A stretch of DNA of 64,000 nucleotides from Minisyncoccota bacterium (GTDB taxonomy: Bacteria > Patescibacteriota > Minisyncoccia > Phycocordibacterales > UBA5272), in assembly GCA_018062965.1 (NCBI GenBank), contig JAGORG010000001.1, forward strand, positions 7,488 to 71,487, given 5' to 3'. Below, piece after piece: positions 14,640-51,943 of the stretch (its first letter is position 1; every line of letters starts with the position of its first letter). Both the position numbers and the translations under genes were made by a program. The notes below the pieces were generated by a model, which was not told where the DNA came from, ran no database searches, and saw nothing but the letters and a program-made list of their open reading frames with translations.

Positions 14640-14651
14640 AAAAATTAATAC

Positions 14652-16221: not shown

Positions 16222-16227
16222 AGCTGT

Positions 16228-16325
16228 CAATGGCGGAGGGTGGTAGACGAGATTAGAACCTATTGGGCTATCCCGTCCAATTACTTTTATGTCCCTAGCT
16301 TATCAGCAGAGACAGCGAACATCCA
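16228..16325 (-). other. R2: second tRNA-3'-half-like remnant (minus-strand ...GGTTCTAATCTCGTCTACCACCCTCCGCCA)
   Basis: same organisation as R1 (CTCCGCCA + terminator), about 100 nt between stop of 16326..16934 and the hairpin. Confidence 0.4.
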
Positions 16326-16934
16326 TTAAGATTTGCCATTCGACTTGGCCAATTTGCCCTTGTAGCGCTCTATACGCTTTTCCCAATCTCCACCCCACTT
16401 TTGGGCCAAAGCCGCCTCACAGAGCCGAATAGCGTCCTCTAGGCGGCCTTCTTTCTCCCGGATAATGGCAAGGTCCATATAGCCGACATGGGACGGTAAC
16501 TCTTGGTCACCGTACTCTTTCTTAAAGGCCTCGGCCGCTTCCGCGCTTATGGCTATCTGTTGCTCACATGCCTTGGTCGCCCGGTCCAAAGCGAAACTAT
16601 CCACGTCCCGGAAACGGTAATAAATATCTTTTTTGTTTTGATACAGGAAATGACGGTCGAGGACCGGAGCGCTTGCCTCCAACGCCTCCGCTTTTTCCAA
16701 TAGCTTGTAGGCAATGTTTCGGTCTTGCTCGGTCTTGAGCCACCCGGCCATAGTGGAGAGATAGCCGGTGGCGGAGCCACTCATTGAAAGAATGTCGCCC
16801 TCTACCACTCCACCGGGACCGTACACGGCAAGTATTCTTTTCCTCTCGGTATCACTAAAGACCGTGAGCCACCAATCGGAGAGGCCGTAGTATTTTATTG
16901 CGCCGCTTGGTTTTTTCGCAAAGAAAGAGAACAT
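16326..16934 (-). CDS. hypothetical protein (202 aa), helical/TPR-like
   Basis: ORF, roughly 50% GC. Confidence 0.45.
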   Translation of the reverse strand: MFSFFAKKPSGAIKYYGLSDWWLTVFSDTERKRILAVYGPGGVVEGDILSMSGSATGYLSTMAGWLKTEQDRNIAYKLLEKAEALEASAPVLDRHFLYQNKKDIYYRFRDVDSFALDRATKACEQQIAISAEAAEAFKKEYGDQELPSHVGYMDLAIIREKEGRLEDAIRLCEAALAQKWGGDWEKRIERYKGKLAKSNGKS

Positions 16935-16938
16935 AAAA

Positions 16939-17643
16939 TTAGCGAATAAACTTCACTTGGATACCGACTACTCCATACTTGGCTTCCTCGTCTTTTGAAT
17001 AATATTTGTATATACCCATGAGGTCGTCTTTGTTTATGCCACCAAACATAGTTGCTGGAAACGCGTCAAAGAGTTGAGAAAATGTTGGATAGTGAAATAA
17101 GTTGGTTATCTTAACTCGAATGATTTGCTCCGGGTCGCTCATTGCCGAAAACTCTATTTCGTCGCCGACGTTAAGAAGCTGTCTTTTCTCATCATTCAAG
17201 CGAACCTCAATGGTTTTAGAGCCGTCCTTTATCTTTCCAAAAGGATTGGGTTGGAGTTTCATTTTGTGAACGTAAACATTCCCGGCTTTCCCGTATGCTT
17301 CCATTTCGTATTTATTTTTCCTATATCCATTACGTGCCGTTTCAAGTTGGTATAAAAATGGGTGAATAAGCGGCTCTCTCATACTTTGTGCAACGTGCAC
17401 GAGTTCATGTTCCAAGTCGTTATCCAACGCATTGGGACTTATCAAAACCATATTTCCTAAAGCCATTGCTCGCGCACCTTTTTGATTTGGTAACCACCAA
17501 TACCACCAAAAACTTTTAACGTGAACCACTAATGCAAAAGGTGTATAAGAAAAAGAGAATTGTTTAGGAATGGAAACAAGCGCACCGCAAAAGCCAAGTA
17601 TGGTCCAAGGAAGATTTAAGATAATTGATAAGAATGTCCACAT
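16939..17643 (-). CDS. membrane-anchored HExxH (HELVH) metallopeptidase-like domain fused to C-terminal ASCH (PUA-like) domain
   Basis: LEHELVHVAQ; GKIKDGSKTIEVRLNDEKRQLLNVGDEIEF resembles ASCH GxKxxExR. Confidence 0.45.
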   Translation of the reverse strand: MWTFLSIILNLPWTILGFCGALVSIPKQFSFSYTPFALVVHVKSFWWYWWLPNQKGARAMALGNMVLISPNALDNDLEHELVHVAQSMREPLIHPFLYQLETARNGYRKNKYEMEAYGKAGNVYVHKMKLQPNPFGKIKDGSKTIEVRLNDEKRQLLNVGDEIEFSAMSDPEQIIRVKITNLFHYPTFSQLFDAFPATMFGGINKDDLMGIYKYYSKDEEAKYGVVGIQVKFIR

Positions 17644-17645
17644 GG

Positions 17646-20600: not shown

Positions 20601-22190
20601 ACCTTCCTCGTCGAAACGGACCTTATCCATTGTCTCGGTAATTTTGTCCTCGACAACATCAAGCGCTTCTTTCTTATCCGAAAGAACTAAGACGGATTGG
20701 TGCCGGAGTATCGCATCAAAAATGATTGCCGTAATCGTATGGCTCTTACCGGTTCCCGGTGGTCCCTCAACAACCAAATACTTACAGTTATCTTTGCGTA
20801 TGGCTGACAATATTTGTAGCTGTTCGCTGTTCAAGGGAATAGGGCTAGCAAATACGAGCTTGTCCGGTACGTCGGTCCCGTCCCATTCGCTCTCCACCTC
20901 GGGATTAACAGGGTCCGGGTTTTTGTGTATGAAATCTTCTACCAAAAGATTGAACATTTCCGCGAGTAGCCCCGTATCGGAGTTCAATTCCTGCAAGATT
21001 TCTTCGTAGTCGTTTACGAGTGCTTCGTCGGACTTGTCGAATAGGGAGAGATAAAGGGAGTTGGATACGCGCGCGTGTAAGCTCCGTGACAGTTGGGTTT
21101 GGTCGCTTGAAACATCAACCTTTTTGTCCAACTCGAAGTTGTTTACAATCTCGCTCAAAATGCTGTTGAGGAACTCGGGCAAATCGTTTTTGTGTTGTGA
21201 CAAATAGATAATACGCTCGGTAATTGAGCGAAGATTTCCGCGAGTACCTTTTTGGTTGTTGTATTCCTGAACTATGAACTCAAGCGCTCTCTTGTTGATA
21301 TAAACTTGCGAATCGAACTCAATCTTGAATACGTCGTTGTCCCGGCGCACGGTAAAGGGAGTATAGAAAATCGGATACTTAACCTTGTTGAAAGTGATGT
21401 CACAGAAATATAAATAGAAATCTTGCTTATCGAGAATGGCTCTGTTTCGGTCCATTTCAAACACCTCCGCGAAAAGGTCACCCACTTGGAAGCTCTCGAA
21501 AAAACCTAGAATGCTTGTCTTGATACTCTCGATGTCGAAAGCTGTTTTGAGTTCCTTGGCCGCGTTTACTTTCTCGTCGGCAATAAGATTTTTGAGAAGT
21601 TCGGAAACCTTGTTCTCAAGCATTCTTAGAAGAACCTCGGTAAGTTCTTCCTCCATTAGATAAATGTCGTTCTCGTCGCCGATGTCGAGGTTTTCGATTG
21701 ATTTCTCAATACTTCCAACGAACGGCAGTACCAATCCTTGTTTAACAATGCCGGCGGTATTTTCGAGAGAAACCGAAAGTCCTTTCTCGTATTCTTTTTT
21801 GTATAGGGCGGCCGCCTTTTCGATTTCCTCCGCTATCAATGCAAGAGTTTCCTTAACTTGTGTCGGCGATATTTTGCCGACTTGCAACGTAATCAAGTCG
21901 AGCAGGTTCTTCGGGAGGTTTGATTTGTAGACCCCTTTTTGGAGGGTGCTTAGAGCGTCTTTATCAAATGACTTTTTAATGAGCGAATGTATGTCTTTAG
22001 AAAAAGAGGGGTATTTGGCAAGATTTACGCCAATCAAAAGATTGTCCGGGTTGCGGAGCTTAACGGAGCGGCGCGGGTTTTTCCTCTTATGGAAATCCGT
22101 TTCGAGGAAGTCCATAAAATACTTCGCAACTTCCTTGACGAAAAGAAGATTGCCGGTGACCTGTTCTTTTTTAGTGGTTTCGGTAGGCAT
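17646..22190 (-). CDS. 1514-aa Upf1/DNA2-like SF1 helicase fused to DUF559/Vsr-like endonuclease domain and C-terminal topoisomerase-type C4 zinc ribbons; long N-terminal region of unknown function
   Basis: Walker A VVEGPPGTGKSHTI, Walker B LVIIDEASQV, motif TFDTCQGEERDIIF, then YKVDFLLVY...IIIEYDGFREH, then CPKCK...CRYCK...CPRCS...CSKFPYC. Confidence 0.75.
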   Translation of the reverse strand: MPTETTKKEQVTGNLLFVKEVAKYFMDFLETDFHKRKNPRRSVKLRNPDNLLIGVNLAKYPSFSKDIHSLIKKSFDKDALSTLQKGVYKSNLPKNLLDLITLQVGKISPTQVKETLALIAEEIEKAAALYKKEYEKGLSVSLENTAGIVKQGLVLPFVGSIEKSIENLDIGDENDIYLMEEELTEVLLRMLENKVSELLKNLIADEKVNAAKELKTAFDIESIKTSILGFFESFQVGDLFAEVFEMDRNRAILDKQDFYLYFCDITFNKVKYPIFYTPFTVRRDNDVFKIEFDSQVYINKRALEFIVQEYNNQKGTRGNLRSITERIIYLSQHKNDLPEFLNSILSEIVNNFELDKKVDVSSDQTQLSRSLHARVSNSLYLSLFDKSDEALVNDYEEILQELNSDTGLLAEMFNLLVEDFIHKNPDPVNPEVESEWDGTDVPDKLVFASPIPLNSEQLQILSAIRKDNCKYLVVEGPPGTGKSHTITAIIFDAILRHQSVLVLSDKKEALDVVEDKITETMDKVRFDEEGFQNPILRLGKTGNTYSQILSKATIEKIKAHHRAVKKDYDVLTENISKLQNSLKEDIEAEIVAYSDVDLKEIRDYYDLESYYEKESFLFDVDELSANQYEIGYFEELRAFLLGLRNQLEAIHVAKFLGVDIEDIKTKEAFVGFLSQISSVSAALIEVSAKYETKLSAISNLGHFSDEDLPKLKELVKECRDAKLPVLGFLFAGTKVEALNARFRTLLPFSKYEKVQESLSDIGNAIEIFDHLNAIRKHSDYLVEIKGDYLGTLTDLLADMHGVTESKELAGSLMEQVEKFSEGFELYPKSLKKTGISDKNILTWFKNKLVDMSSMEFEKAMRFAGLKNAISTRFGCIPKLNYASHKKEVETLVTTQVTHLLDSRLIDFYEHNKNDAETLRNIIRDKKQFPKEQFAKLKDAFPCILAGIRDYAEYIPLEAGIFDLVIIDEASQVSIAQAFPALIRAKKVLILGDKRQFSNIKAAQARSETNREYLNALAEVFRREVSQEDAKQVKLAKFDIKTSILEFFEFISNYNIQLLKHFRGYKEIISYSNKYFYQNSLQVMKIRGKAMDEVIKFSFAESDGKVELIPNTNRKEIELIISELQALREADKGLSVGIITPHTNQQKILIDEISKLPERDYYFDKLKLKIMTFDTCQGEERDIIFYSMVANEVSDKLWGVFIKDLNSVDSEEDGKIKVQRLNVGFSRAKECMHFVLSKPLDKYDGSIGDALRHYYNVLEEAKKERTSADVDQSSKMEPEVLNWFYQTEFWQKNKDSIEFIPQFEIGKYLKQLDISYQHANYKVDFLLVYKDENHREHKIIIEYDGFREHFKNIDEVNEFNYKNYYSEGDVYREKVLESYGYKFLRINKFNIGTNPIATLDERISDLFRNSPRNGFLDNIQETVEGLQNGDKKECPKCKEIREDEDFKDNSLVTGYGRFCRYCKSHGSGARAERPAPVLSNVDCPRCSAKMILRNGRRGKFYGCSKFPYCRGTRNI

Positions 22191-22193
22191 TTT

Positions 22194-22376
22194 TTATCTC
22201 CGTTTGCGAAGGTTGGAGTTTTCCTTAAGGAACTTTTGCAAGTCCGCTTCCTTAATGCGCCAGTAACCGACTTTTGTGGCCATTAAGCGCTTGCTATGGA
22301 TATACCGAAACACCGAACGCTCACTCACTCGCAAGCGTGTCGCAACCTCTCTTAGTGTAAGCAGTTTCTCTCCCAT
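22194..22376 (-). CDS. excisionase/AlpA/MerR-type HTH DNA-binding protein (60 aa)
   Basis: LTLREVATRLRVSERSVFRYIHSKRL...GYWRIKEADLQKF. Confidence 0.65.
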   Translation of the reverse strand: MGEKLLTLREVATRLRVSERSVFRYIHSKRLMATKVGYWRIKEADLQKFLKENSNLRKRR

Positions 22377-22404
22377 AAGGTTATTACAATTCTATTATTT
22401 CCAT

Positions 22405-22445
22405 TTCAAGTTGTCAAAATGTGTCAAGGTCGTTAAAATGGATAT
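22405..22445. promoter_or_regulatory. divergent promoter/operator region with two TGTCAA repeats 10 bp apart (TTGTCAAAATGTGTCAAGG)
   Basis: between divergently transcribed xis-like gene and 22446 operon. Confidence 0.4.
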
Positions 22446-23162
22446 GTGGGGTCAAATATGAAAATGACGATGAAAGTAAGTAAGGGTGAGTATAGAAAAA
22501 TCCTCTCCGCCTTCTCCGATAAGGCGGCTCTTGATATTCGACATTTATGTTCTGTTCTTCTTAAAGCAGAGTTAGAAGACCGGCTCGATATAGAGCGAAA
22601 TATTTTGGATATAGAAGATATTGCGGCAAGCGCTATACCGGAGAACCAACTAAAATCAATCTACGAAAGAATGACGGGCGATTTGGGGATTTTAAAAACA
22701 GCGACACCGGTTACCAAGAAAATGCTGAAACTAGATTTTAGCGGCTTGGAAATCAATACGGAAAACGCTATTACGCTTTCGCAAGTCGCCGACGAAATGG
22801 GCCGGCCGGCACATCCGCTTTGGAACAGAAAATCTAAGAGTGAACAGGAAGAAACTCCCGATGAAGATTTGTGGCTCGATGAGGAAAACGGCTTAATCCA
22901 TTTTCGAGGCAGAAAATGCAAGTTGGGTATCGGAGATATTGATTACTTTTTAATACAAACTTTACTTAAGTCCCCAATAGGTAAGCGAGTTGCCGAAGAC
23001 GATATTTTGGAAGCAGATGATTTTGTTCAACGCACCAGAAAAAGCAAAAAGTCACGACGTCTATATGACGCTCGTCGTCGTCTAAATAACAAAATGGCTC
23101 TTGATTTAGGGATAACAGAGTTTGTCGGTTTCGAGAAATCTTACTTTTGGAGAAATCAGTAG
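22446..23162 (+). CDS. hypothetical protein (238 aa)
   Basis: ORF. Confidence 0.45.
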   Translation: MGSNMKMTMKVSKGEYRKILSAFSDKAALDIRHLCSVLLKAELEDRLDIERNILDIEDIAASAIPENQLKSIYERMTGDLGILKTATPVTKKMLKLDFSGLEINTENAITLSQVADEMGRPAHPLWNRKSKSEQEETPDEDLWLDEENGLIHFRGRKCKLGIGDIDYFLIQTLLKSPIGKRVAEDDILEADDFVQRTRKSKKSRRLYDARRRLNNKMALDLGITEFVGFEKSYFWRNQ

Positions 23163-23242
23163 AGCAATAATTATTGGCTCGATGTGAGTCAAGTTGGTTC
23201 TCATGCTCCTTAGCTACGCTACACACGTAGCTTTTTTGCTAT

Positions 23243-23503
23243 GTGATTATGACGATGAAAAAGGACAATTCGGTTAGCTTCTATCGCACGTCGGACCTCG
23301 CGTTGACGTGTGCTCTTTGCATTGTCGGCTTTATTGCCGAGGACGTGGAAGCTATCGGTCCTACAAGGTCGGTCTTCGTCTTCAAGAGTTCGGAAGAACT
23401 AAGCACAGCAATAAAACGCTACTGGATGAGCGAGCTTCGAGTGGAACCGCAAGCATATTTCAATATGCTTAAAGTCCTTAAAGCTCGGCTCTATCAGCGT
23501 TGA
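23243..23503 (+). CDS. hypothetical protein (86 aa)
   Basis: ORF. Confidence 0.35.
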   Translation: MIMTMKKDNSVSFYRTSDLALTCALCIVGFIAEDVEAIGPTRSVFVFKSSEELSTAIKRYWMSELRVEPQAYFNMLKVLKARLYQR

Positions 23504-23504
23504 G

Positions 23505-23741
23505 ATGCTTTCGCCCGAAGCATTGCAGGAGTTCAAGGATATTTGGAGGGATGAGTTCCATGAGGAAATCCCTGACCATTTTGCTGTTGAGCAAGCAATC
23601 AATCTCTTGGCGATGTTCAACGTAATCTACCGACCTCTCCAACGAGAGTGGCTAAATGACTATGAAAATAAAGAGCATAGGAGAAATCCTCAAGGACCGA
23701 GACAAGAACCAAACCCCGGACCTAAGAGGACTTCCGATTAG
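23505..23741 (+). CDS. hypothetical protein (78 aa)
   Basis: ORF; overlaps next ORF by 86 nt. Confidence 0.3.
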   Translation: MLSPEALQEFKDIWRDEFHEEIPDHFAVEQAINLLAMFNVIYRPLQREWLNDYENKEHRRNPQGPRQEPNPGPKRTSD

Positions 23742-24165
23742 GCCACGAAATAAGCAAAACCGTTTCTACATAGATAACGAGTTTCTCGAAAGAGGTTATG
23801 TAGCAAGGTTCAAGAAGTTCCCACTCATTCCCGTATACGCCGTCTTGTGTAAGTACGCCAACGCACGAACGCAAAAATGTTGGCCGGCGTGCGAAACGAT
23901 AATAAAAGAAACCGGAATAAAGAACCGAAATACTGTTTGGGCTGTCATTACTCTCTTGGAGAAATTAAGCATCATCTATACAGAGCGTTCGAGCGGTAGA
24001 ACCTCGAATAGATACTGGATGCTCGATAGCAAATATTGGAAAGAGCCGAACAGTATCACGGTTGATACGGTTAGGGATTGGGTCAACAAGAACCGTATCA
24101 AAAAGAAACCAACCGTATCAAATGAGGAAACGAACAGTATTCCCGGTGATACGCGAAGTCATTAA
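23656..24165 (+). CDS. HTH protein resembling phage/plasmid replication-initiator or DnaD-like N-terminal domain
   Basis: YAVLCKYANARTQKCWPACETIIKETGIKNRNTVWAVITLLEKLSII; true start uncertain. Confidence 0.4.
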   Translation: MTMKIKSIGEILKDRDKNQTPDLRGLPIRPRNKQNRFYIDNEFLERGYVARFKKFPLIPVYAVLCKYANARTQKCWPACETIIKETGIKNRNTVWAVITLLEKLSIIYTERSSGRTSNRYWMLDSKYWKEPNSITVDTVRDWVNKNRIKKKPTVSNEETNSIPGDTRSH

Positions 24166-24197
24166 ATCTTAGAAATCAAATAAATATATAAATCACT

Positions 24198-24545
24198 ATG
24201 ACAATGAAAAAAGAAAAACGATTGCCAATTGGTTACGTGCTTGGTGAGAAAAAGCAGGTTGTTCTATCAAACGACCAAGAAGTTATTACGGCGCTCTTTG
24301 GTTACTTTGCTCGAATGCATAGCGAAGCACATAGTCGAGCCACCAAACGAGGAATTGCTGAGGCAAAGAAGCGATGCGAAACATCCGAAGCTAATGAAGT
24401 CATTGCTTCAGCTAGAGGCAAGGGACATGTTGCTCACCGCTTTCTTAAAAAGCCATTGGCCTTAGACGGAAAGAAACTATTTGTGAATAAATCCAGCTTT
24501 CTAAAGGTACATCGACTAACGAGAGCACCGCGCGCGAGTGTCTAA
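24198..24545 (+). CDS. hypothetical protein (115 aa)
   Basis: ORF. Confidence 0.35.
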   Translation: MTMKKEKRLPIGYVLGEKKQVVLSNDQEVITALFGYFARMHSEAHSRATKRGIAEAKKRCETSEANEVIASARGKGHVAHRFLKKPLALDGKKLFVNKSSFLKVHRLTRAPRASV

Positions 24546-24587
24546 ACCCAATTATTCAAATATTGGCCCCACCTATACCTCGAAGCT

Positions 24588-24926
24588 ATGAAATGCAAAC
24601 ATGTAAAACCAAATAAAAGTAAGTGCAAAGCCAACGCAATGGTAGGTAAAGATTGTTGCTTCATGCACAACCCGGATACACGTAAGAAGCTCCTTGAAGC
24701 ATCACGCAAAGGTGGCAAGTCGAATAAGCGTGAACGCCGCAAACTACGGATACTCAAAACACGTTTAAAGACCCCCGAGGGTATCCGCAAACTCCTTGAA
24801 GAAACGGTGGTCCAACTTAATGACGGAAAGATTGATGAGAAGACCGCAAACACCGTTGCATACCTGTCCTCCAACCTAATGAAAGCCCTAGAACTCAAGC
24901 ACGATAAGGACTATTGGGAGCTATAA
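24588..24926 (+). CDS. hypothetical basic protein with N-terminal Cys/His cluster
   Basis: ORF. Confidence 0.35.
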   Translation: MKCKHVKPNKSKCKANAMVGKDCCFMHNPDTRKKLLEASRKGGKSNKRERRKLRILKTRLKTPEGIRKLLEETVVQLNDGKIDEKTANTVAYLSSNLMKALELKHDKDYWEL

Positions 24927-24959
24927 AAATGCTTCCAAAGCACCCCCTAAAAATGTTAT

Positions 24960-25170
24960 GATTTATATGCTACCCGTTAGAACAAATACCGCACGAGGTT
25001 TTCGTCTTTTTTGGCGCCGTTTATGGGCTGAAAGGGGCAGTCAAGACCTCCGTAAACGGTGCCTCGTGCATTCGTTCTTGCGGGTAGCAGGCAACTTGGC
25101 TGTCCCTTTTTGCGTTGTCCCGCGAGAGAGAGCTGTTGCCTCTTATAAGAATTATTTAGCTACGAATAAT
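24960..25170 (+). other. GC-rich, highly structured non-coding segment (nested inverted repeats GCACGAGG/CCTCGTGC, GGCGCCGTTTA/TAAACGGTGCC, CTTGCGGG/CCCGCGAG, GGCAAC/GTTGCC); candidate ncRNA or regulatory leader
   Basis: read directly; the track ORF 24958.. is coding only from the ATG at 25174. Confidence 0.35.
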
Positions 25171-25173
25171 TTT

Positions 25174-25611
25174 ATGGAGGTACAAAAGAAAAAGTATAGT
25201 AAGGGTTTGATAGTGTTCGTGTCTGTCTGTGTGTTTTTCCTAGTGGTTGTTATCGGTTTAAGTTCCGGGTCCGGCGATAAGCAGGCGGAGCAAAAAACGG
25301 AAGCGGTCGCAACCGAACAAACCGACGCCTCAAAGAAAGAAGCACAGGAAGGGCTTGAAGCACTCTTGGCTCTCTCAAAGCAAAGCGGTATCGTCGCGTC
25401 GTACGAGTTTTCCGATACTGCAAATGTTGTTTACGTGACCGATGTTTGGTATTCGCTCGATGTTCCTTTCAAGAAGGACCTCGTTGGAAAAATCGCATCA
25501 CTCAAAGAAGCCGCAACCGGCTACCACACGTTCCAAGTTATGAATGTAAAGTCGAATGAGAAAGTGGCAGAGGTTACCTCGTTTAGCGGCTCGATAGAGA
25601 TTTATAAATAA
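25174..25611 (+). CDS. membrane-anchored hypothetical protein (146 aa; MEVQKKKYSKGLIVFVSVCVFFLVVVIG...)
   Basis: start moved to in-frame ATG preceding the TM helix. Confidence 0.45.
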   Translation: MEVQKKKYSKGLIVFVSVCVFFLVVVIGLSSGSGDKQAEQKTEAVATEQTDASKKEAQEGLEALLALSKQSGIVASYEFSDTANVVYVTDVWYSLDVPFKKDLVGKIASLKEAATGYHTFQVMNVKSNEKVAEVTSFSGSIEIYK

Positions 25612-25616
25612 AACCC

Positions 25617-27248
25617 ATGAAGAATACTGATACTCAAATCAAATACGGAAACTACAACCGCAAAAGTAGTGAAGACCGTGAGCGGCAGATTTTGAGTATC
25701 GGTTCCCAAATTGATTGGGCGAAAGAAGCGGCGGAAAAGCACGCCGTTAAAATCCTCAAGTCATACCAAGAGGAAAAGTCGGCAGAGGCACCCTATCAAC
25801 GTGCCGTCTTCGACCAAATGGTTAAAGATATTCATGCCGGAATAATCAACGCACTTATTTGTTGGAAGTTGGACCGTCTCGCTCGTAATCCCGAAGAAGC
25901 CGGCATCATTCTTGGAATGTTAAAGCGCGGTGAGATAAAGCACATCATCACCAACGAGCGAGAATACCGACCTGAAGACAACGCCATTATCTCCTATGTG
26001 GACTTTGGAATGGCGGACCAGTATTCGCGTGATTTAAGCAAGAACGTTAAGCGAGGTCTAAAAACAAAGCTCAATATGGGTTGGTATCCGAGCCGTGCTC
26101 CATTGGGATATTTGAATACTAAAATTGCGGAGAAAGGTGAGAACACAATCGTAAATGACCCAGAGCGTTTTGAGACAGTAAAGCGCATGTGGCAAACAAT
26201 GCTTACCGGGAGGTATACGGCTCCCCAGATATTGCAGATAGTGAATAACGAATGGAAGTTTAAGACACGAACAACTAAGAAGTTCGTCGGGAAGCCCCTT
26301 TGCCGAGCAACTATCTATAAGATTTTCAATAATCGTTTTTATTGCGGTTTTTACGAGTTCCCGAAAGGAAGCGGAGAATGGTACCGAGGCAAGCACGAAC
26401 CAATGGTTACGGAGGACGAGTTCGAGCAGGTCCAAATGTTGCTCGGCAATAAGAAACGTCCGCGCCCTTTGACGCGTCGGTTCGCTTTTACCGGCCTAAT
26501 GCGTTGCGGAAATTGTGGCGCAATGATTACGGCAGAGGAAAAGATAAAAAGGCAAAAGAATGGAAACGTACACCAGTACATTTATTATCGTTGCACAAAG
26601 CGCATAGACGAGAAGTGTCCCGAGAAAACGGTTGAATTAAAAGAGCTTACCGGGCAGATTGATTTGCTTATCCGTGGCCTCACTATTTCCGACAAGTTTG
26701 CGGCTTGGGCAATCCGTTACCTCCACGAGGTCCGACAAAACGAAGCGAAAAGCCATGAGGAAATGTTCACCAACAAACAGAAACGACTTACCGACGTTGC
26801 AAAGCAAATGAACAATCTCTTACTAAAATATACGTCCTCCGAAAACTCCACCGGTGACCTCATTAACGATACGGAATATAAGACATTAAAGCTCGCTCTT
26901 ACGAGAGAAAAATCTGCGCTTGAAGGTGACTTACAAACACAGAGCAAAGAAATGGAGAGGTGGATTGAGTTGAGCGAACGGACTTTCCACTTTGCCCGTT
27001 ACGCAAGCACTTGGTTTGAAAAAGGCGACCTAGAAACTAAAAGAGCCATTTTTGCCTGTTTAGGTTCGGACCTCATCGTAAAAACCCAAAAGCTCAACAT
27101 ACAACTGCATAAACCGTTCCAATTCATTTTCGATAACCTTGAGGAAATAGAAAAAGAATTGGTTACGGTTAGAACCTCAGAAAGTGAAGTATTTATGGGC
27201 CAGAAAGTATATTTGGACCCAAGTTGTCTTACGTTGCGGAGGAGGTGA
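25617..27248 (+). CDS. large serine recombinase (integrase) paralog 3 (543 aa)
   Basis: YNRKSSEDRERQILSIGSQ ... LICWKLDRLARNP; zinc ribbon CGNCGA...YYRCTK; last 12 nt overlap tRNA-Ser 3' end. Confidence 0.85.
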   Translation: MKNTDTQIKYGNYNRKSSEDRERQILSIGSQIDWAKEAAEKHAVKILKSYQEEKSAEAPYQRAVFDQMVKDIHAGIINALICWKLDRLARNPEEAGIILGMLKRGEIKHIITNEREYRPEDNAIISYVDFGMADQYSRDLSKNVKRGLKTKLNMGWYPSRAPLGYLNTKIAEKGENTIVNDPERFETVKRMWQTMLTGRYTAPQILQIVNNEWKFKTRTTKKFVGKPLCRATIYKIFNNRFYCGFYEFPKGSGEWYRGKHEPMVTEDEFEQVQMLLGNKKRPRPLTRRFAFTGLMRCGNCGAMITAEEKIKRQKNGNVHQYIYYRCTKRIDEKCPEKTVELKELTGQIDLLIRGLTISDKFAAWAIRYLHEVRQNEAKSHEEMFTNKQKRLTDVAKQMNNLLLKYTSSENSTGDLINDTEYKTLKLALTREKSALEGDLQTQSKEMERWIELSERTFHFARYASTWFEKGDLETKRAIFACLGSDLIVKTQKLNIQLHKPFQFIFDNLEEIEKELVTVRTSESEVFMGQKVYLDPSCLTLRRR

Positions 27249-27324
27249 GATTCGAACTCACGGTCCGGTTGCCCAGACTCTTGTTTTCAAGACAAGTGCA
27301 ATAGACCAACTCTGCCACTCCTCC
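27237..27324 (-). tRNA. tRNA-Ser (anticodon TGA), class II
   Basis: GGAGGAG/CTCCTCC acceptor, D GCAG AGTTGGTCTATT GCAC?, anticodon stem CTTGT/ACAAG loop CTTGAAA, long variable arm, T-arm GTGAG TTCGAAT CTCAC, discriminator G. Confidence 0.8.
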
Positions 27325-27374: not shown

Positions 27375-27830
27375 CTACACCGCATAGTGTTCACTGTAAT
27401 GACAGTTGGGGCATAGGAGTTCTAGATTTTCAAACGAATTATCTTTTCTGTTCCTATTTTTATGGTGAACATGCAGCACCTGATGAATTGCATATAAACA
27501 CCGTTCACATTGAGGTCCACGTAAATCAAAAAGCTGTTTTTTAATTGAACGGATTCCTTTTGCTTTGTCGTTTGGACCTTGCATAAGATAATGAATACCT
27601 GCACGATTTTTGTTAGCACATACCCTGCTACACGTTTTCTTATTGAACCCAGAAAGAATAAGTTTTCCGCACACAATACAAGAAACTTCTTTACGGCAAG
27701 AAATACCATAACAAGCACTACTACAGAACAGTTTGTTTTTCGTAGCTTTTATTTCTGAAGGTCTTTTGTAGATTGACCTGTTACACACGCAACATGCTGT
27801 ATTTGGCTTTCTTATGTATAACTCAGTCAC
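27375..27830 (-). CDS. HNH endonuclease with multiple CxxC zinc knuckles
   Basis: HVHHKNRNRKDNSFENLELLCPNCH. Confidence 0.7.
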   Translation of the reverse strand: MTELYIRKPNTACCVCNRSIYKRPSEIKATKNKLFCSSACYGISCRKEVSCIVCGKLILSGFNKKTCSRVCANKNRAGIHYLMQGPNDKAKGIRSIKKQLFDLRGPQCERCLYAIHQVLHVHHKNRNRKDNSFENLELLCPNCHYSEHYAV

Positions 27831-27899: not shown

Positions 27900-27971
27900 G
27901 CTCTCGTAGTTCAATGGATAGAATTCAAGTTTGCGGTACTTGCGATGCAGGTTCGATTCCTGCCGAGGGCA
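27900..27971 (+). tRNA. tRNA-Arg, anticodon read as GCG (unusual)
   Basis: GCTCTCG/CGAGGGC acceptor, anticodon stem CAAGT/ACTTG loop TTGCGGT, T-arm GCAGG TTCGATT CCTGC. Confidence 0.65.
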
Positions 27972-27975
27972 CATG

Positions 27976-28015
27976 AAAACAAAACAACCACTTTAAAAAG
28001 TGGTTGTTTTGTTTT
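27976..28015 (+). terminator. terminator AAAACAAAACAACCACTTT-aaaa-AGTGGTTGTTTTGTTTT
   Basis: long palindrome directly after tRNA-Arg. Confidence 0.7.
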
Positions 28016-28021
28016 CAAAAA

Positions 28022-28135
28022 CTCTGCCCTCGACAGGAATCGAACCGAAGGTCCACATTTTTAATAAACAAAGTGAATACTAAAAATGTAGAATCTCGAC
28101 CAAAGGGAGAGGCTGTTCCTGCAAAAAGGGCGCAC
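28022..28135. repeat. tRNA-associated module copy A: inverted copy of tRNA-Arg 3' end (28022-28046) + conserved 66-nt hairpin core (28047-28112) + imperfect direct copy of tRNA 3' end (28113-28135)
   Basis: ggttcgattcctgYcgagggca shared with 27950-27971 in reverse complement; core about 80% identical to 32559-32623. Confidence 0.6.
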
Positions 28136-28251
28136 TATAGAGAACCCTCGTACAAATCACATTTTAAGATATTCTCAGCCGACAAATACTTCTTGATGTA
28201 ACCTAACTTTGAATACAAACAATAAACCGACCACGCGGGTCGGTTTATTGT

Positions 28252-32442: not shown

Positions 32443-32515
32443 GCCCCTATAGCTCAGTTGGTAGAGCAGCGGCCTTTTAAGCCGACGGTCGCAGGTTCGA
32501 TCCCTGCTGGGGGCA
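32443..32515 (+). tRNA. tRNA-Lys (anticodon TTT)
   Basis: GCCCCTA/TGGGGGC acceptor, D GCTC AGTTGGTA GAGC, loop CTTTTAA, T-arm GCAGG TTCGATC CCTGC. Confidence 0.85.
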
Positions 32516-32540
32516 CAAAATAAGCGAAGCGTTTTTGATA

Positions 32541-32641
32541 CCCAGCAGGGATCGAACCGAAGGTCCATATTTTTAAGAAACGAAGTGACTATAAAAATAT
32601 ATGATCTCGACTGAAAGGAGAGGCGGACCTGCTGGGGGCAC
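32541..32641. repeat. tRNA-associated module copy B: perfect 18-nt inverted copy of tRNA-Lys 3' end (32541-32558) + conserved 65-nt hairpin core (32559-32623) + direct copy of tRNA 3' end (32624-32641)
   Basis: cccagcagggatcgaacc = reverse complement of 32494-32511; cctgctgggggcac repeated directly. Confidence 0.65.
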
Positions 32642-32659
32642 TCAGCACTAAAAACACCT

Positions 32660-33184
32660 ATGAAAACCTTCAAAAATATTTATGACGAGGACACACTTGA
32701 GAATGAAGCTAAACCAAGCAGTGAATATACTCTACGACCAACAGTAAAGGCTATCGTTATCAACAACGAAAATAACATTGCACTACTAAAAGCTCGCGGA
32801 CACTACTTGCTCCCTGGTGGAGGCATAGAGACTGGCGAGTCTGCTATAGATGCGCTACGAAGAGAGCTGATGGAAGAGATTGGTTGCAATATTGATAACA
32901 TCAAAGAACTTGGTATTTCGAACCAATTTAGAAAAAAGCATATGGTTCACTACGAAGTAGTATTCTTTAGTGCAAACGTTGCTGGTGAAAAAGGAAACCT
33001 AACAACTACCCAAGAAGACGAGCTACGAGATGTTGAGTTGTTGTGGTTTAACAAAGAAAAAGTCTTTACACTTCTAAAGTCTCAGATAGATACACAAGAT
33101 GAAAATGAATACTCATTTTATTTTAATTCCCGCTCTCACTTTGGAGCATTTGAGGAATACATCACAAATTCACAAGATAGGTAA
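32660..33184 (+). CDS. NUDIX hydrolase
   Basis: Nudix box GGGIETGESAIDALRRELMEEIG. Confidence 0.8.
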   Translation: MKTFKNIYDEDTLENEAKPSSEYTLRPTVKAIVINNENNIALLKARGHYLLPGGGIETGESAIDALRRELMEEIGCNIDNIKELGISNQFRKKHMVHYEVVFFSANVAGEKGNLTTTQEDELRDVELLWFNKEKVFTLLKSQIDTQDENEYSFYFNSRSHFGAFEEYITNSQDR

Positions 33185-33193
33185 AATAAAAGT

Positions 33194-33823
33194 CTACACT
33201 CCAAGCACGATACTCTCTAACTCAACTTTTAAATCCTTCTCCCCTCGATGAGCATCGAGACTTGCACGGATGATACGGGATGCAAATAGCTCACATTCTT
33301 TTTCAGAAAACTTTGTTGCTTTACCTGACTTTGTGTCCTCCCATATTGTTTTCATCTTCCACCACAGAGCCCCTTGTATCGCCTCAGCAGAGTCAGTGTC
33401 TCGTAGCTTCATCCATTCAAGCCATGCTTGTTTCTTATCTCGTCGCGCAAACGCATTACAAAGAGTAAACGGAGTTGCGGATTCAACTTTTTCCTCACGT
33501 GCGTCAAATGTTTTTGTAGAATACTTTTCGAGACGCTTAACACGATTCGCATCCGCCAGAGGCTCATCGATAATAAATATATTTTCTGAGGTTTGCATCT
33601 CTCCGAGCAAATCAACTACAACGTCCCTACTACCTGCCACGTCCATTGTTTGAATAAGGTTGGCAACTATTTTTTCACCAAAAAGACTACGAGCTTCCAC
33701 GAGTGGTTTGAGTGCTGCAATTTGTTCGCTGTATATATGTACCGAAATAGGTCCAAGAGAAGCAAGTTCCTTGTAAGCTTTTTCTCGACGTAGCGTATCT
33801 GTACCGATAAGTGAATATATCAT
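33194..33823 (-). CDS. possible DNA polymerase III delta subunit-like protein
   Basis: size/position next to polA and weak resemblance to HolA N-terminal region. Confidence 0.35.
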   Translation of the reverse strand: MIYSLIGTDTLRREKAYKELASLGPISVHIYSEQIAALKPLVEARSLFGEKIVANLIQTMDVAGSRDVVVDLLGEMQTSENIFIIDEPLADANRVKRLEKYSTKTFDAREEKVESATPFTLCNAFARRDKKQAWLEWMKLRDTDSAEAIQGALWWKMKTIWEDTKSGKATKFSEKECELFASRIIRASLDAHRGEKDLKVELESIVLGV

Positions 33824-36688: not shown

Positions 36689-39013
36689 TTAGTGATGGTT
36701 ATTGTTGTTGTCACCCTTGTACGCAACGTAGAGGCTGCGTCCGAGGATGCCAATGATGAAGAGGATAGCAATGAGTGCAAGCCATTCGATAAGTGTGTTT
36801 GGAAGGAATCCGATACCGTCCCCACTTTTACCGATAACTTTTTTACCTCCTTCTGATTTTGAATCAGTCTGTTCTGTGATAGTTCCGACAACGTATGATG
36901 TTACTTCGTCTTGAACTGTTTCATTTCCCGATGTACCTGGAACAGTGTAGATAACGTATGCTGTGGTCACAACTGATGTACCAACGAGAGCTCCGTTATT
37001 TACTTGTACGTTCCATGTGAGTGAACCTTCAGCATATGGATCAAGCCCCACTCCACTGACAGTTAGTGTTCGTGCATTTGCATCAAACATTCCTGCGGTT
37101 GAGTTTACAAAACTCATATCAGATGGAACGCTCACCTTAAATGTAAGTGGTGCGATTCGTGTGTCTGAAAGGTTTTTGTACACGAGGCGGTATGTTGCTT
37201 CACTGTTTGGTGAAAGTGATCCACTTACTTTTTCTACATGAAGTGAGATGAGTTTCTGTCCTTCATTGATAAGCGCTGCCGTACCTCGTGAACCAATAGT
37301 TACAACTGATCCGTCACTACAAACGATTTCGTTTTTAACAGTAGTTTTTGTTGATGTTTTACCTGGAACCTTAACTGGAGTAACAGGCTTTACATACGTA
37401 ACCTTTGATGACTTTGTTGTGAACTTTACGATTTCACCCTTTACTGTACCGTACTGATTATTCATAACCGCACGACAGTAGTATGATGTGTTTTCTTTAA
37501 GGTTCGTAAGCATGTTTGAGAACGGTGCTGTCGCTTTGTTTCCGATAGAAGCAGATGCTGTCTGTCGTCCAAGGTTTGATGTCTCACCGTATTCGAACCA
37601 TGCAGTTGACTGAGCACCTGAGGCGATAAGACCTATACCGTTACAACGAGCACTGTTCTTTGTGATTTCTGTTACTGGAGATGTAACCACGTTGTTGAAC
37701 TTGATGTTTTGACTTTGTGGGTATACCGTAACCGAATCTGTTGCCTGGTTTCCTACACTGTTGTAACACGTGATGGTAAACGTTGTTGGCTGTGTGATGT
37801 TGTATCGTAGTTCGTTTCCAGAAAGGTTCTTGTAACCACTCCATCCGTTTGACGCAGAACAGTTTGTCGCGTTCTGACTTGTCCATGTGAGTGTTGTGTT
37901 TCCTCCGTAGACGAGTGTTGTTGGGTTAGCGTTGATATCTACCCATGGAATACTTGCAACTACTGGGCAGCTTTGGTATTCAGGGATAACAGAACCGTTT
38001 GGACATGTTCGGTAACATGTAGAACTTTCAGGAACTGTTGTTCCGTTTGGACACACCTTATAACATGTTTGTGCTACGGGAACTGTTGTTCCGTTAGAAC
38101 ATGTCTTGTATTGAAGTGGACACACCTGTGTTACAGGAATAACACTTCCATCCCAACATGTCTGATTCTGCACTGGAGTAACCGGAGCAGGACAGTATGT
38201 GTTTGCGGTAACTGTTGTTCCATTGCTACATACTTTTGTACATGATGGGTAGTCGTGATTGTAACGACTAACATATGGGTCGTTTAGTGAATATGTACAT
38301 GTACTTGGAGTAGGAGCCTGACATGTTCCATTCGCTAGACGAGTATAGCCAGCTGGACATGGAGCAGGTGTAGCAGGACACGCAGCAAATGAACAGTTAG
38401 GGCCAGTTCGTCCGACAGTTGATCCATCTGGACAGATTTGAGCATCCTGAGGACACGCTCCTGGTGTCACGACAGTAGGACAGCTCTGTGTTTCTGGAAC
38501 AACAGAACCGTTTGGACATGTTCGGTAACATGTAGAGTTCACAGGTACTACTTGTCCGTTTGCACAGACTTTGTTTGTTTGAGCAACTGTCCCTCCCCCT
38601 GTTGAATATGTGCCGTATGAACTAGATGTGTAGTATGTTGGTGCGCTATAGTATGTTGAACCTGTATACCCTGTCCAACTTGGAGATGAGTATGTGTTGT
38701 AGTCTACATAACTTCCTGATGAATATCCTGAAGTTGTGTAGGCAGGATAATATACATCATTTGAAACTGGAGGATAATATACATCTGAGCTGTTAGTTAC
38801 CGTTGGTCTGTAGTATTCGTCATCACACCACGTACATGCTGTATTAACAACATCATAACCACCATCATATGTTGGTATGTAGTCGTTCCATTCTTCTTCA
38901 GTTGCCCATTCATACTCTTCTGCCTCTTCTGCTATGACTTGAGTTGGAACAAAAGATGTAAGCACAGCAAACATAACGAGAAGTGCGGATATTTTTTGTA
39001 AAATGTTTTTCAT
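36689..39013 (-). CDS. large Cys-rich cell-surface protein: signal peptide, tandem Cys-containing repeats (CxNGTTVPxxxxC), C-terminal TM anchor
   Basis: MKNILQKISALLVMFAVLTSF signal; repeats around residues 150-350; C-terminal LALIAILFIIGILG. Confidence 0.6.
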   Translation of the reverse strand: MKNILQKISALLVMFAVLTSFVPTQVIAEEAEEYEWATEEEWNDYIPTYDGGYDVVNTACTWCDDEYYRPTVTNSSDVYYPPVSNDVYYPAYTTSGYSSGSYVDYNTYSSPSWTGYTGSTYYSAPTYYTSSSYGTYSTGGGTVAQTNKVCANGQVVPVNSTCYRTCPNGSVVPETQSCPTVVTPGACPQDAQICPDGSTVGRTGPNCSFAACPATPAPCPAGYTRLANGTCQAPTPSTCTYSLNDPYVSRYNHDYPSCTKVCSNGTTVTANTYCPAPVTPVQNQTCWDGSVIPVTQVCPLQYKTCSNGTTVPVAQTCYKVCPNGTTVPESSTCYRTCPNGSVIPEYQSCPVVASIPWVDINANPTTLVYGGNTTLTWTSQNATNCSASNGWSGYKNLSGNELRYNITQPTTFTITCYNSVGNQATDSVTVYPQSQNIKFNNVVTSPVTEITKNSARCNGIGLIASGAQSTAWFEYGETSNLGRQTASASIGNKATAPFSNMLTNLKENTSYYCRAVMNNQYGTVKGEIVKFTTKSSKVTYVKPVTPVKVPGKTSTKTTVKNEIVCSDGSVVTIGSRGTAALINEGQKLISLHVEKVSGSLSPNSEATYRLVYKNLSDTRIAPLTFKVSVPSDMSFVNSTAGMFDANARTLTVSGVGLDPYAEGSLTWNVQVNNGALVGTSVVTTAYVIYTVPGTSGNETVQDEVTSYVVGTITEQTDSKSEGGKKVIGKSGDGIGFLPNTLIEWLALIAILFIIGILGRSLYVAYKGDNNNNHH
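37950..38600. repeat. intragenic DNA-level tandem repeats (ggaactgttgttccgttNgNacat... units) encoding the Cys repeats
   Basis: repeated near-identical 40-60 nt segments read directly. Confidence 0.5.
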
Positions 39014-40937: not shown

Positions 40938-41045
40938 AAAGCTCACATCTGTCTTTATATAGGACTCTCGGAAGCGGGTAGCTGAGAGGGAAGGATTTTC
41001 TTAGCAAAGAAAATACCTGTGCCTATATAAAGACAGATGTGAGCT
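40938..41045. repeat. perfect 24-bp inverted repeat AGCTCACATCTGTCTTTATATAGG / CCTATATAAAGACAGATGTGAGCT separated by a 58-nt internally palindromic spacer, 70 nt upstream of pilB
   Basis: read directly. Confidence 0.6.
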
Positions 41046-41114: not shown

Positions 41115-42809
41115 ATGATTACCTTTGATGAAGTACTGCAAAATAAAAAACTAAGTGAACTCCGTAGAGATGAGGAGGAGGATTTGGTAAAAATACTTTC
41201 TGATAAATATGGACTTCCGTATGTAGATTTGCGGGGTATCGCTCCAGAGCCTGATGCAATGCGATTTTTTAAAGAAGAAGACGCCAGAAAAGCTGGGGTT
41301 GCTGCGTTTAAGGTGGTTGGCCGCAAACTCTACATAGCAACGAACGCTCCGCATAAAGCAGAGGTGGAAGCTCTTGTTCGTCCACTTGAAACACGTGGGA
41401 CTGAACTGGTTATGTTTTTGTGTTCGCAAGCATCCCTTGAACATGTCTTTGCACGTTATGCAGATATTCACGAGGGATCAAAAGTTGCCGAAGGAACTCT
41501 TGATCTAACACTGGGTAAAATGGAGTCACTAGCTGCTACATTTGAACACGTGAGTGACATGCAGAAACTATTTGATGAGCTTCTTGGTTCAAATGTACTC
41601 TACAAAACAACACGACTCATTGAACTCATCATTGCAGGCGCGCTTAAGTTTGATGCATCTGACATTCATATTGAACCAGAAGAAACGACGGTGCGTATAC
41701 GCTATCGCTTAAACGGTGTACTTGAAGATGTTGCATATATCGACGGTGTAGCACTCAAACAAATCACAAGTCGTTTGAAATTGGTTTCTGGGTTGAAACT
41801 TTCAACTGTTGCAAATGCGCAAGACGGAAGATTTAGTATCGACCTTGGGGAGGTGGAGGTGGAGGTGCGTGTGTCTGTGATTCCTGGAAACTACGGAGAA
41901 AGCTTTGTGATGCGTCTTCTTGACCCACGCCACGCTCAGTCTGATATCAATAACATCGCCATGGGAGTAAAGGTACGCGAAGCGGTAGACCGAGCGCTCG
42001 CTCGACCAAATGGGGTTATTTTGACAACTGGACCAACGGGTTCTGGAAAGACAACAACACTGTATGCGTTTTTACGCCACACATATTCCCCTGGTACAAA
42101 AATCATCACTATTGAGGATCCTATCGAATACCATTTGGATGGCATCACACAGACCCAGGTAGACGAAGAAAAAGACTACACCTTTTTGTCTGGACTACGA
42201 GCATCCCTCCGTCAGGACCCAGATGTAATCATGGTGGGAGAAATACGAGACGAAGACACTGCAAAGGTTGCGATCAACGCAGCACTCACCGGGCACTTGG
42301 TGTTTTCTACATTGCACACCAATACAGCAGCTGGAACTATTCCTCGTCTTATTGATTTGAAAGTTAACCCGAAAGTTATCGCTTCAGCGCTTTCTCTTGC
42401 ACTTGCTCAACGTCTCGTACGAACACTGTGTGAGCATTGCAAACAAGAATACGTAACCAACGAAAAAGAATCTAGAGTCATAACGAACACTCTTGGTGCC
42501 ATGAAAGTAGCTGGTATGGAGGAATCAATGATGGGATATGTACCACTTCCTGAATACAGGATATATAAAGCAGTTGGGTGCGACAAATGTAGTTCTGGGT
42601 ACACAGGGCGCACTGGTATCTTTGAAGCAATTGTTATGTCAGACAGTATTGAGCTTGCTCTTGCAGGGAATCCGAGTGAGCGCGATATACGCGAAGCAGC
42701 TAAAGGATCCAAAATCCCCTCACTTCTCCAAGATGCTATACTGAAGACACTTCAAGGCATAACTTCGCTTGAAGAAATAGGAAAAACGGTTGATCTTTAC
42801 GGTGAATAA
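41115..42809 (+). CDS. pilB: type IV pilus / type II secretion assembly ATPase (GspE/PilB family)
   Basis: Walker A GPTGSGKTTTLYAFL; MVGEIRDEDTAKVAINAALTGHLVFSTLHTN; C-terminal tetra-Cys. Confidence 0.85.
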   Translation: MITFDEVLQNKKLSELRRDEEEDLVKILSDKYGLPYVDLRGIAPEPDAMRFFKEEDARKAGVAAFKVVGRKLYIATNAPHKAEVEALVRPLETRGTELVMFLCSQASLEHVFARYADIHEGSKVAEGTLDLTLGKMESLAATFEHVSDMQKLFDELLGSNVLYKTTRLIELIIAGALKFDASDIHIEPEETTVRIRYRLNGVLEDVAYIDGVALKQITSRLKLVSGLKLSTVANAQDGRFSIDLGEVEVEVRVSVIPGNYGESFVMRLLDPRHAQSDINNIAMGVKVREAVDRALARPNGVILTTGPTGSGKTTTLYAFLRHTYSPGTKIITIEDPIEYHLDGITQTQVDEEKDYTFLSGLRASLRQDPDVIMVGEIRDEDTAKVAINAALTGHLVFSTLHTNTAAGTIPRLIDLKVNPKVIASALSLALAQRLVRTLCEHCKQEYVTNEKESRVITNTLGAMKVAGMEESMMGYVPLPEYRIYKAVGCDKCSSGYTGRTGIFEAIVMSDSIELALAGNPSERDIREAAKGSKIPSLLQDAILKTLQGITSLEEIGKTVDLYGE

Positions 42810-51916: not shown

Positions 51917-51943
51917 ACCCTTGGTGTATACAAACCTGTACCC

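Follow-up and report, generated by a model that had tools for sequence, protein, structure and literature searches.

A conserved, hairpin-bearing unit behind tRNA genes of candidate phyla radiation bacteria, possibly a miniature integrative cassette

Several described systems pair a short repeated target with a nucleic acid that folds. Integron cassettes carry at each unit end an attC site, an imperfect hairpin formed by one strand; the attP sites of CTX phages and of integrative mobile elements exploiting Xer recombination (IMEX) hold two inverted copies of the target that can fold into a duplex copy of it; and islands or prophages integrated at tRNA genes leave the tRNA intact, together with a direct repeat of its 3' part that starts in the T-loop, a T-loop sublocation class of such integration having reportedly been recognised. 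We describe here a unit that shares parts of this logic, found in a stretch of 64,000 nucleotides (the window) of contig JAGORG010000001.1 from a Minisyncoccota bacterium, where it follows a tRNA-Lys gene as the second copy (copy B) of a tRNA-associated module to which an earlier note had drawn attention; copy A follows a tRNA-Arg gene. Genomes of the candidate phyla radiation (CPR, or Patescibacteria) are tiny and hold little spare DNA. Even so, several of their tRNA genes are followed by a structured, unannotated element, and the selection that maintains it is as strong as on many genes. It represents a real, selected family, undescribed as far as Rfam and the literature that we searched show, the latter containing no description of such elements. 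We tentatively read it as a miniature integrative cassette whose folded hairpin mimics its tRNA-gene target, and give this reading somewhat less than an even chance.

Copy B and its immediate surroundings consist of the following parts.

32443-32516, plus strand: tRNA-Lys(ttt), called by ARAGORN and matched by Rfam (tRNA, 71 bits)
32494-32516, plus strand: X1, the final 23 nt of tRNA-Lys and the source of the copies in the module
32517-32540, plus strand: spacer, by its sequence a degenerate mini-terminator, aaaataagcgaagcgtttttgata, at the position held in other copies by a long perfect hairpin, T1
32541-32558, plus strand: X', the tRNA-Lys 3' end copied in inverted orientation over 18 nt without mismatch (none expected by chance)
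32558-32609, plus strand: P2, the conserved core hairpin (predicted folds, and pair counts on 15 copies)
32558-32566 with 32602-32609: lower stem of P2, with a bulge at A32560 and an invariant wobble, G32563·T32605
32567-32575 with 32592-32600: upper A/T stem of P2
32576-32591: loop of P2, 16 nt
32610-32627, plus strand: purine-rich, unpaired conserved stretch, acTGAAAGGAGAGGCgga (alignment A3; pattern search of the window)
32628-32641, plus strand: X2, a direct copy of the tRNA-Lys 3' end, cctgctgggggcac, and right-hand boundary of the unit
32660-33184, plus strand: NUDIX hydrolase gene (Pfam NUDIX, E = 1e-17)

The sequence GGTTCGATCCCTGCTGGG at 32494-32511 (plus strand) recurs without mismatch as its reverse complement at 32541-32558, so that X' and the tRNA-Lys 3' end can form a stem of 18 bp around a loop of 29 nt; shuffled sequences yielded no such match, even when two mismatches were allowed. 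The inverted copy takes in the T-loop, the T-stem on its 3' strand and some of the acceptor strand. Likewise, CCTGCTGGGGGCAC at 32503-32516 is repeated directly at 32628-32641, where the chance expectation is 0. Both repeats had been placed by the earlier note at exactly these positions. Its estimate that the cores of the two copies are about 80% alike was close to what we measured (around 12 differences in 66 columns between 32559-32627 and 28047-28115, or about 82% identity), and the paired C-G to T-A change that it saw in the A/T hairpin, ACATTTTTA/TAAAAATGT in copy A against ATATTTTTA/TAAAAATAT in copy B, is real. In the purine-rich stretch that follows P2, GGAG is invariant in alignment A3, the next A, G and C are at least 90% conserved, and (G/A)ATCTCGAC is near-invariant. 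The order of parts in copy B is that of copy A, T1 being replaced by a short degenerate hairpin; this spacer is partly similar to a native terminator found after the tRNA in related locus L157 and after the module in L152. The closing stem of copy B itself is only 9 bp because the direct copy lacks the T-loop bases. The NUDIX gene does start 18 nt past the module, as had been pointed out; the association is incidental, since L152 has the module and no NUDIX gene, and the gene is a neighbour outside the module, part of the variable content to the right of X2. Taken by itself, copy B is plausibly, if not quite probably, a small self-contained cassette of about 125 bp.

The module had been proposed to be a repeated, tRNA-linked one, and the same design indeed recurs behind other tRNA genes. 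A scan for the core pattern in one genome per species gave 23 matches. Six are real and come from CPR genomes of low G+C content (Saccharibacteria, Paceibacterota and unclassified bacteria); 17 are chance matches in high-G+C genomes. A metagenome scan added five loci, representing four distinct copies (L150 duplicates L144), and loci fetched through homologues of the neighbouring Fpg gene came from some ten related genomes of Saccharibacteria in which both tRNA sites are present. All units lie immediately 3' of tRNA genes and in the orientation of the tRNA, in Saccharibacteria and Paceibacterota, at the genes for tRNA-Arg(GCG), tRNA-Lys, tRNA-Asn, tRNA-Leu and tRNA-Ser, and are built in the order terminator-like hairpin (T), X', conserved core hairpin, X (the direct copy). 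The X repeat begins in the T-loop at GATCC, and the flanking repeat, which is the tRNA end, varies in length from 12 to 18 nt. X, T and X' make up one long palindrome.

At least four core types share a common architecture: X' and X form the closing stem, the 5' strand often bears an extra arm whose CUNC loop is conserved, the bulge GAAUAGG is likewise conserved, and there is a long hairpin starting with GGUC. One and the same core type is found behind different tRNAs (type 1 at Arg, Lys and Asn; type 3 at Arg, Lys, Ser and Leu), its arms always matched to the local tRNA, so that across the family the arms have been re-matched to five tRNA species; in the window, the inverted and direct copies in A and B each match their own neighbouring tRNA and not the other copy. 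X' has a C opposite G70 of the tRNA 3' strand, whereas the tRNA 5' strand has a U there (U3). Because X' thus complements the 3' strand and does not copy the 5' strand, it is an inverted copy of the 3' end and not a duplicate of the tRNA. The right-hand X is decayed in its acceptor part, as expected of a displaced tRNA end, and the T-stem is not rebuilt in the units, except in L159.

The fold of the core is well preserved. Pairing in the core hairpin reaches 96.8% across 15 type-1 copies, far above shuffle and slide controls; three positions change on both sides, the main covarying pair is never broken, and one G·U wobble is invariant. Seven type-3 copies show compensatory changes at 15 of 29 pairs, again with one invariant G·U, and both core types have a conserved bulge besides. 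The tRNA-sense strand is the more stable one in 17 of 21 units, and single mismatches inside the helices of these units, read on that strand, comprise 35 G·T and 11 A·C. Covariation, stability and this mismatch bias together indicate that the tRNA-sense strand folds as a single strand. In predicted folds X' and X, which lie 65-70 nt apart, pair with each other, the inner stem being GCAGGRATCG/CGATYCCTGC, i.e. the sequence of the tRNA T-loop and T-stem. The full closing helix of 18-19 bp is present in L163, L005 and L165, is reduced to 9 bp in copy B, and has decayed in copy A, L009 and L147. The fold of copy B scores z = -2.8 with RNA parameters and -4.1 with DNA parameters. Of the original claim that RNA secondary structure is under selection, the structural constraint stands; the folded strand itself may be RNA or single-stranded DNA, which fit the data equally well.

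Sequence comparison at the orthologous tRNA-Arg site points to purifying selection. In a six-locus comparison (window, L008, L009, L159, L160 and L163), identity at the four-fold degenerate sites of ruvA, the neighbouring gene, is 24-41%, i.e. saturated; that of the type-1 core in the same loci is 80-97%. The hairpin shape of T1 is kept and its sequence is not. X' tracks the acceptor variant of its tRNA (CCCTC with GAGGG, CTCTC with GAGAG), even where the right-hand X has no acceptor part, and its complementarity to its own tRNA end is 21/22 in copy A, 18/18 in copy B and 24/24 in L144, and is also kept in L009 and L147. In relatives without units, the terminators behind the tRNA carry no X'-like extension. 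From core conservation, the retained shape of T1, the complementarity of X' and these unextended terminators we conclude that the units are not neutral debris.

The units are also present or absent as wholes. In L152, whose proteins are 95-99% identical to those of the window, tRNA-Lys and the module are identical to those of the window and are followed by terminator AAAATTGTGCAACAATTTT; in L157 that terminator stands directly after tRNA-Lys, with no unit. The window and L152 diverge exactly past X2, where the window has the NUDIX gene and L152 the terminator, and the two sequences (window 32642-33210, L152 2306-2350) rejoin at a common ...AAGCAC motif before the next gene. At tRNA-Arg, L163 carries the series T1, X', core 1, X, followed by a terminator T2 and a type-3 unit, and L157 a T2-like terminator and a type-3 unit, a difference of exactly one unit. 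Empty sites occur in L009, L153, L156, L159 and L161; tandem mosaics of two or three units with different cores in L144, L163, L009 and at tRNA-Leu of the window; and decayed unit fragments in L001. Two units (L144 5728-6165 and L008 223-633) have an open reading frame (ORF) between X and X', neither with a Pfam match. Such unit-sized differences at X fit insertion at the tRNA end. The earlier description of the module included neither these indel units bounded by the tRNA-end repeat, nor the mosaic arrays, nor the tRNA-Leu copies in the window.

The L156 contig (1-8000) is a giant palindrome in which the genes for S20, RuvA, Mur ligase and Fpg are mirrored around two inverted type-3 units that replace tRNA-Arg. 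The probable cause is a chimeric assembly provoked by the hairpin. Among short-read contigs with the NUDIX gene, several (L166, L169 and L170) end inside tRNA-Lys.

A search behind all seven tRNA genes of the window gave, besides copies A and B, two more units behind tRNA-Leu (6452-6676) that are built differently. Copy A is made up as follows.

27900-28136, plus strand: copy A as a whole
27900-27972, plus strand: tRNA-Arg(gcg)
27974-28017: T1, a perfect 21-bp hairpin with A-tract and U-tract, resembling a bidirectional terminator
28025-28046: X', complementary to the tRNA-Arg end at 21 of 22 positions
28047-28115: core
28116-28136: decayed direct copy

The region behind tRNA-Leu contains the following.

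6323-6407, plus strand: tRNA-Leu(gag)
6410-6451: terminator after tRNA-Leu
6452-6595: type-3-like unit (nhmmer match with the type-3 profile)
6468-6489: arm hairpin of this unit, with a CUGC loop
6490-6502: X' part of this unit, gataggacttgaa, followed by the long hairpin and X, aagtccttttctc
6596-6676: type-4-like partial unit, ending in X, gactcctctcct
6679-6714: terminator after the units

At the boundaries of these units stand decayed copies of the 3' end of tRNA-Leu. The fold here scores z = -3.6, and there is near-identity to the type-4 core of L165, with a compensatory change. In L021, tRNA-His lies 128 bp after tRNA-Leu, with no unit between them.

How might such a unit come to lie behind a tRNA gene? 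In the cassette reading, an incoming unit would bring a terminator to the side of the tRNA and leave the tRNA end duplicated on the far side. On the tRNA-sense strand X' could pair with X, or with the tRNA's own end; such pairing would rebuild a duplex copy of the tRNA T-arm and acceptor end, capped by the conserved hairpin. This strand-specific folded hairpin would be the attachment site, a mimic of the target, and would recombine with the tRNA gene through an enzyme supplied in trans, as for integron attC and the folded CTX-phage attP. The cassettes would be mostly empty, with an occasional gene as cargo. A unit bounded by X is the classic footprint of tRNA-gene integration. Such integration agrees with the start of X in the T-loop, the terminator supplied by the element, the differences of whole units, the mosaics and the cargo seen now and then. 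The layout expected after insertion, a single copy at the tRNA with inverted and direct copies at the far end, matches what we see. We infer that the units are mobile and not just deletable, that their folded form is DNA, and the enzyme that would act on them.

A number of observations weigh against this reading. There is usually no cargo for such a cassette to mobilise. No recombinase was found in or beside any unit: Phage_integrase, HUH and reverse-transcriptase domains were absent from window ORFs of at least 140 aa, and Phage_integrase from the ORFs scanned beside arrays at other loci. Nor did we find a circular or free form or a phage or plasmid carrier, and viral contigs and phage or plasmid records gave no match (one loose viral pattern search gave noise only). 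Deletion alone between direct X repeats can also give presence and absence. The similarity of tRNA-Arg cores loosely tracks host relatedness, and remains at 80-97% despite saturated neutral sites, a pattern closer to that of a functional element passed on vertically than to that of a selfish one. Conserved G·U pairs are commoner in RNA than in DNA hairpins. In the window, the position of the dnaA/dnaN origin region makes the folded strand the leading-strand template, and therefore not the one of the two strands that is more often single-stranded. Finally, the outer closing stem of the module is only 58% paired, yet X' stays complementary to the tRNA.

The main rival is a structured RNA of tRNA sense, either co-transcribed with the tRNA or made by terminator read-through, whose conserved core acts as a small or protein-binding RNA; we regard this as possible, if doubtful. 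Its X'/X helix copies the acceptor and T-stem, so that RNase P and RNase Z could conceivably excise it, and it would be derived from a tRNA trailer (3' external transcribed spacer, ETS) or resemble a tRNA minihelix. Purifying conservation of the core at saturated neutral sites, covarying helices with an invariant G·U and a conserved bulge in both core types, the bias of G·U towards the tRNA-sense strand, and the constant position downstream of a tRNA in the same orientation all agree with such an RNA, as does the extra arm of types 3 and 4, which departs at the very point from which the D and anticodon arms of a tRNA emerge. Moreover, X often ends like a tRNA gene (...GCAC) with a terminator next (L163, L144 and L152), and copy B has no real terminator between tRNA and module. 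In most copies, however, a strong terminator of 17-21 bp stands between tRNA and module and leaves 0-9 nt for a promoter, which speaks against an RNA gene and for the cassette. We found no promoter-like site in that interval and no convincing promoter before the modules, although the promoter scan was uninformative. X is not followed by a terminator in several copies (window A and B, L005, L159 and L160), the outer closing stem is often decayed, and tandem mosaics, decayed fragments and patchy presence would be unusual for an RNA gene. No Rfam family matches: Rfam 15 reports only tRNAs in the whole window at the gathering threshold, and in both module regions, at E of 5 or better, only spurious hairpin matches of microRNA type besides the tRNAs.

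A further, unlikely reading would place the choice of target in the nucleic acid itself. The unit would then be a tRNA-anchored element whose core is a portable scaffold, whose arms are rewritten for each tRNA end, and which recognises its target by base pairing; the hairpin would exchange strands with the tRNA gene to give a four-way junction, to be resolved by host enzymes or by an unrecognised partner. Its counterpart on the RNA side would be a class of regulatory RNAs specific to CPR bacteria that mimic tRNA ends.

The earlier note had proposed to test whether the inverted copy attenuates read-through from the tRNA. As a cis-acting check of this kind, X' would be antisense to the tRNA 3' half in transcripts that pass the terminator, and the long duplex would block or destroy the precursor (e.g. 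through RNase III) or attenuate the downstream gene, with X2 and the core as a possible buffer. We consider this improbable. The predicted minimum-energy fold of the co-transcript does pair X1 with X' over 18 bp (-57.5 and -87.6 kcal/mol, z of -6 to -7), X' remains a full complement that follows the acceptor variant even where X2 has decayed, and the terminators of module-free relatives have no such extension. The X1/X' stem is, however, followed by GAAGGTCC, with no U-tract, and is not reported by a terminator scan, so that it is not an intrinsic terminator. Nor does a read-through check explain the conserved core, the multiple core types and the arrays; the downstream genes vary or are convergent (S20 at copy A; no NUDIX gene in L152), invasion by X' would meet resistance from a folded tRNA, and palindrome correction at the DNA level could keep the same complementarity.

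That the units are inert attachment-site scars of past integrations into and excisions from tRNA genes, possibly by elements with large serine recombinases, of which this genome has many, with palindromes that would have been lengthened by template-switching during replication and no present function, we hold to be very improbable. The tRNA 3' ends of the window are integration hot spots, with recombinase genes abutting tRNA-His and tRNA-Ser, and both the decayed fragments of L001 and the continuous palindrome of X, T and X' would suit such an origin. Conservation and covariation have already largely refuted it: the cores are 80-97% identical against 24-41% at four-fold sites, the helices covary and are unbroken, with mismatches biased to one strand, and the serine-recombinase islands in the window have no tRNA-end repeats. 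Weakest of all, and hardly credible, is a small RNA of the opposite strand, transcribed towards the tRNA and ended by a shared bidirectional terminator with its 3' end copying the tRNA 3' end, which could draw on the symmetric, suitably placed, bidirectional-type T1 and on the minus-strand G·U pairs and better minus-strand folding of the closing stem in copy A and L021, but is opposed by the better plus-strand fold in 17 of 21 units, wobbles that favour the plus strand by 35 to 11, invariant wobbles that become A·C mismatches on the minus strand, an extra arm that is tRNA-like in placement only on the plus strand, and the lack of a minus-direction terminator in copy B.

Other candidates were set aside as well. 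ARAGORN found no tRNA, transfer-messenger RNA (tmRNA) or pseudo-tRNA on the minus strand. A primer-binding site of retroviral type does not fit, as the complementarity excludes CCA and in copy B stops 5 nt before the tRNA end. For small ribozymes and C/D-box guides there were no conserved motifs by eye and no Rfam match, and for a small ORF or a Shine-Dalgarno role of GGAGAGG no conserved start codon or ORF following it. Copies A and B are not the ends of a large island: the genes between them are housekeeping ones (S20, RuvA, Mur ligase and Fpg), and there are no distant copies of X. As for a miniature inverted-repeat transposable element (MITE), the window holds only two type-1 copies, 82% alike and both behind tRNAs, with a flanking repeat of variable length. 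A link to the three large serine recombinases of the window was rejected, their islands having neither tRNA-end repeats nor modules, and the window serine recombinase had no tblastn match in the ten carrier loci searched (L153-L165 lay outside this search).

These three recombinase genes, with Resolvase, Recombinase and Zn-ribbon domains, lie at 3657-5282, 11006-12325 and 25617-27248. The first and the third overlap tRNA 3' ends, those of tRNA-His (5250-5324, minus strand) and tRNA-Ser (27236-27324, minus strand) respectively, which suggests that serine-recombinase elements integrated at tRNA 3' ends; the junctions at these two tRNAs show neither repeats nor modules. A probable element at about 8200-27250, between tRNA-Arg(tct) and tRNA-Ser, encodes two of these three recombinases along with ASCH and HTH_36 proteins and a superfamily 1 (SF1) helicase of 1514 aa that bears a zinc ribbon (17646-22190); the same tRNAs are at most 5 kb apart in L021. 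A free-standing HNH endonuclease gene (27375-27830, minus strand) lies between tRNA-Ser and tRNA-Arg(gcg), and HNH or DUF559 nuclease genes occur near arrays in L144 (7678-8073) and L163 (4022-4324).

The dnaN and dnaA genes (minus strand) and yidC (plus strand) occupy 49032-53004, with dnaA/dnaN at 49-51.7 kb, and a replication origin is likely near 51.7-52.3 kb. Because of this position the module-bearing tRNA genes would be head-on to replication; the strand was assigned from the position of dnaA/dnaN, GC skew being uninformative. Elsewhere in the window, a perfect 24-bp inverted repeat with a 58-nt spacer (40940-41045) lies just upstream of a PilB/T2SSE ATPase gene (41115-42809), and diverged direct repeats of 48 and 95 nt (37965-38573) lie inside a 774-aa ORF (36689-39013) with no Pfam match, whose product is probably a surface protein containing repeats. 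A cluster at 56191-59115 resembles type IV secretion and includes a VirB4/TraG-type P-loop ATPase and a PrgI-family protein, and RuvA, RuvB, RuvC and RuvX are all encoded in the window.

If the units are cassettes with a folded attachment site, single-strand recombination of the integron and CTX style would extend to tRNA genes and to a major uncultured radiation, and would point to a recombinase so far unrecognised; if they are RNAs, they would form a new tRNA-linked class. On either reading they offer annotators a recognisable signature, and account for assembly breaks and palindromic chimeras at these loci.

Set against known systems, the family has its more distant parallels among RNAs and interspersed repeats. 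Like RNAs derived from or resembling tRNA trailers (the 3' ETS-leuZ sponge and mascRNA-type minihelices), the units lie in the 3' flank of a tRNA and in tRNA sense, with a closing helix that, where complete, has an acceptor/T-stem geometry which RNase P and RNase Z could recognise; unlike them, they replace the T-loop by a structured insert of 70-120 nt, are usually preceded by a terminator, and show no sequence or covariance-model match. With the dRS3-flanked neisserial intergenic mosaic elements (NIMEs) and the bacterial interspersed mosaic elements (BIMEs) and repetitive extragenic palindromic (REP) sequences of E. coli they share tandem mosaics split by a recurring short repeat and a hairpin-rich position at gene 3' ends. 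Here, by contrast, the units are anchored to tRNAs, what recurs between them is the end of the tRNA itself, and each site holds one to four units as against hundreds per genome.

The tRNA-integrated islands and prophages come nearer, having the same T-loop-proximal direct repeat and intact tRNA, a far copy that decays, and presence or absence that varies among relatives. Our units differ in having no integrase and usually no cargo, in being about 100 times smaller, and in adding an inverted copy and a conserved structured core. Integron cassettes resemble them as short units in series at a fixed site, with empty cassettes among them, with the imperfect one-strand hairpin at each unit end, an architecture conserved while sequence varies, the recombination-proximal stem conserved best, and cargo between repeat and hairpin. 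The units described here, on the other hand, stand at tRNA 3' ends and not at attI, have no GTTRRRY/RYYYAAC boxes and no intI or tyrosine recombinase nearby, form arrays of at most three, have stems that copy the neighbouring tRNA, and mostly carry only a terminator. Compared with the CTX-phage attP and IMEX, the target is a tRNA gene and not dif, there is no phage genome and nothing pointing to XerCD, and the unit is only 125-170 bp long; shared with them are two inverted target copies, 65-90 nt apart, able to fold into a duplex copy of the target, and an arrangement in which one junction has inverted and direct copies and the other a single direct copy, here tRNA(X) ... X'-core-X. While failing the defining tests of each, the family is closest in logic to folded-hairpin recombination sites and to the att repeats of tRNA genes.

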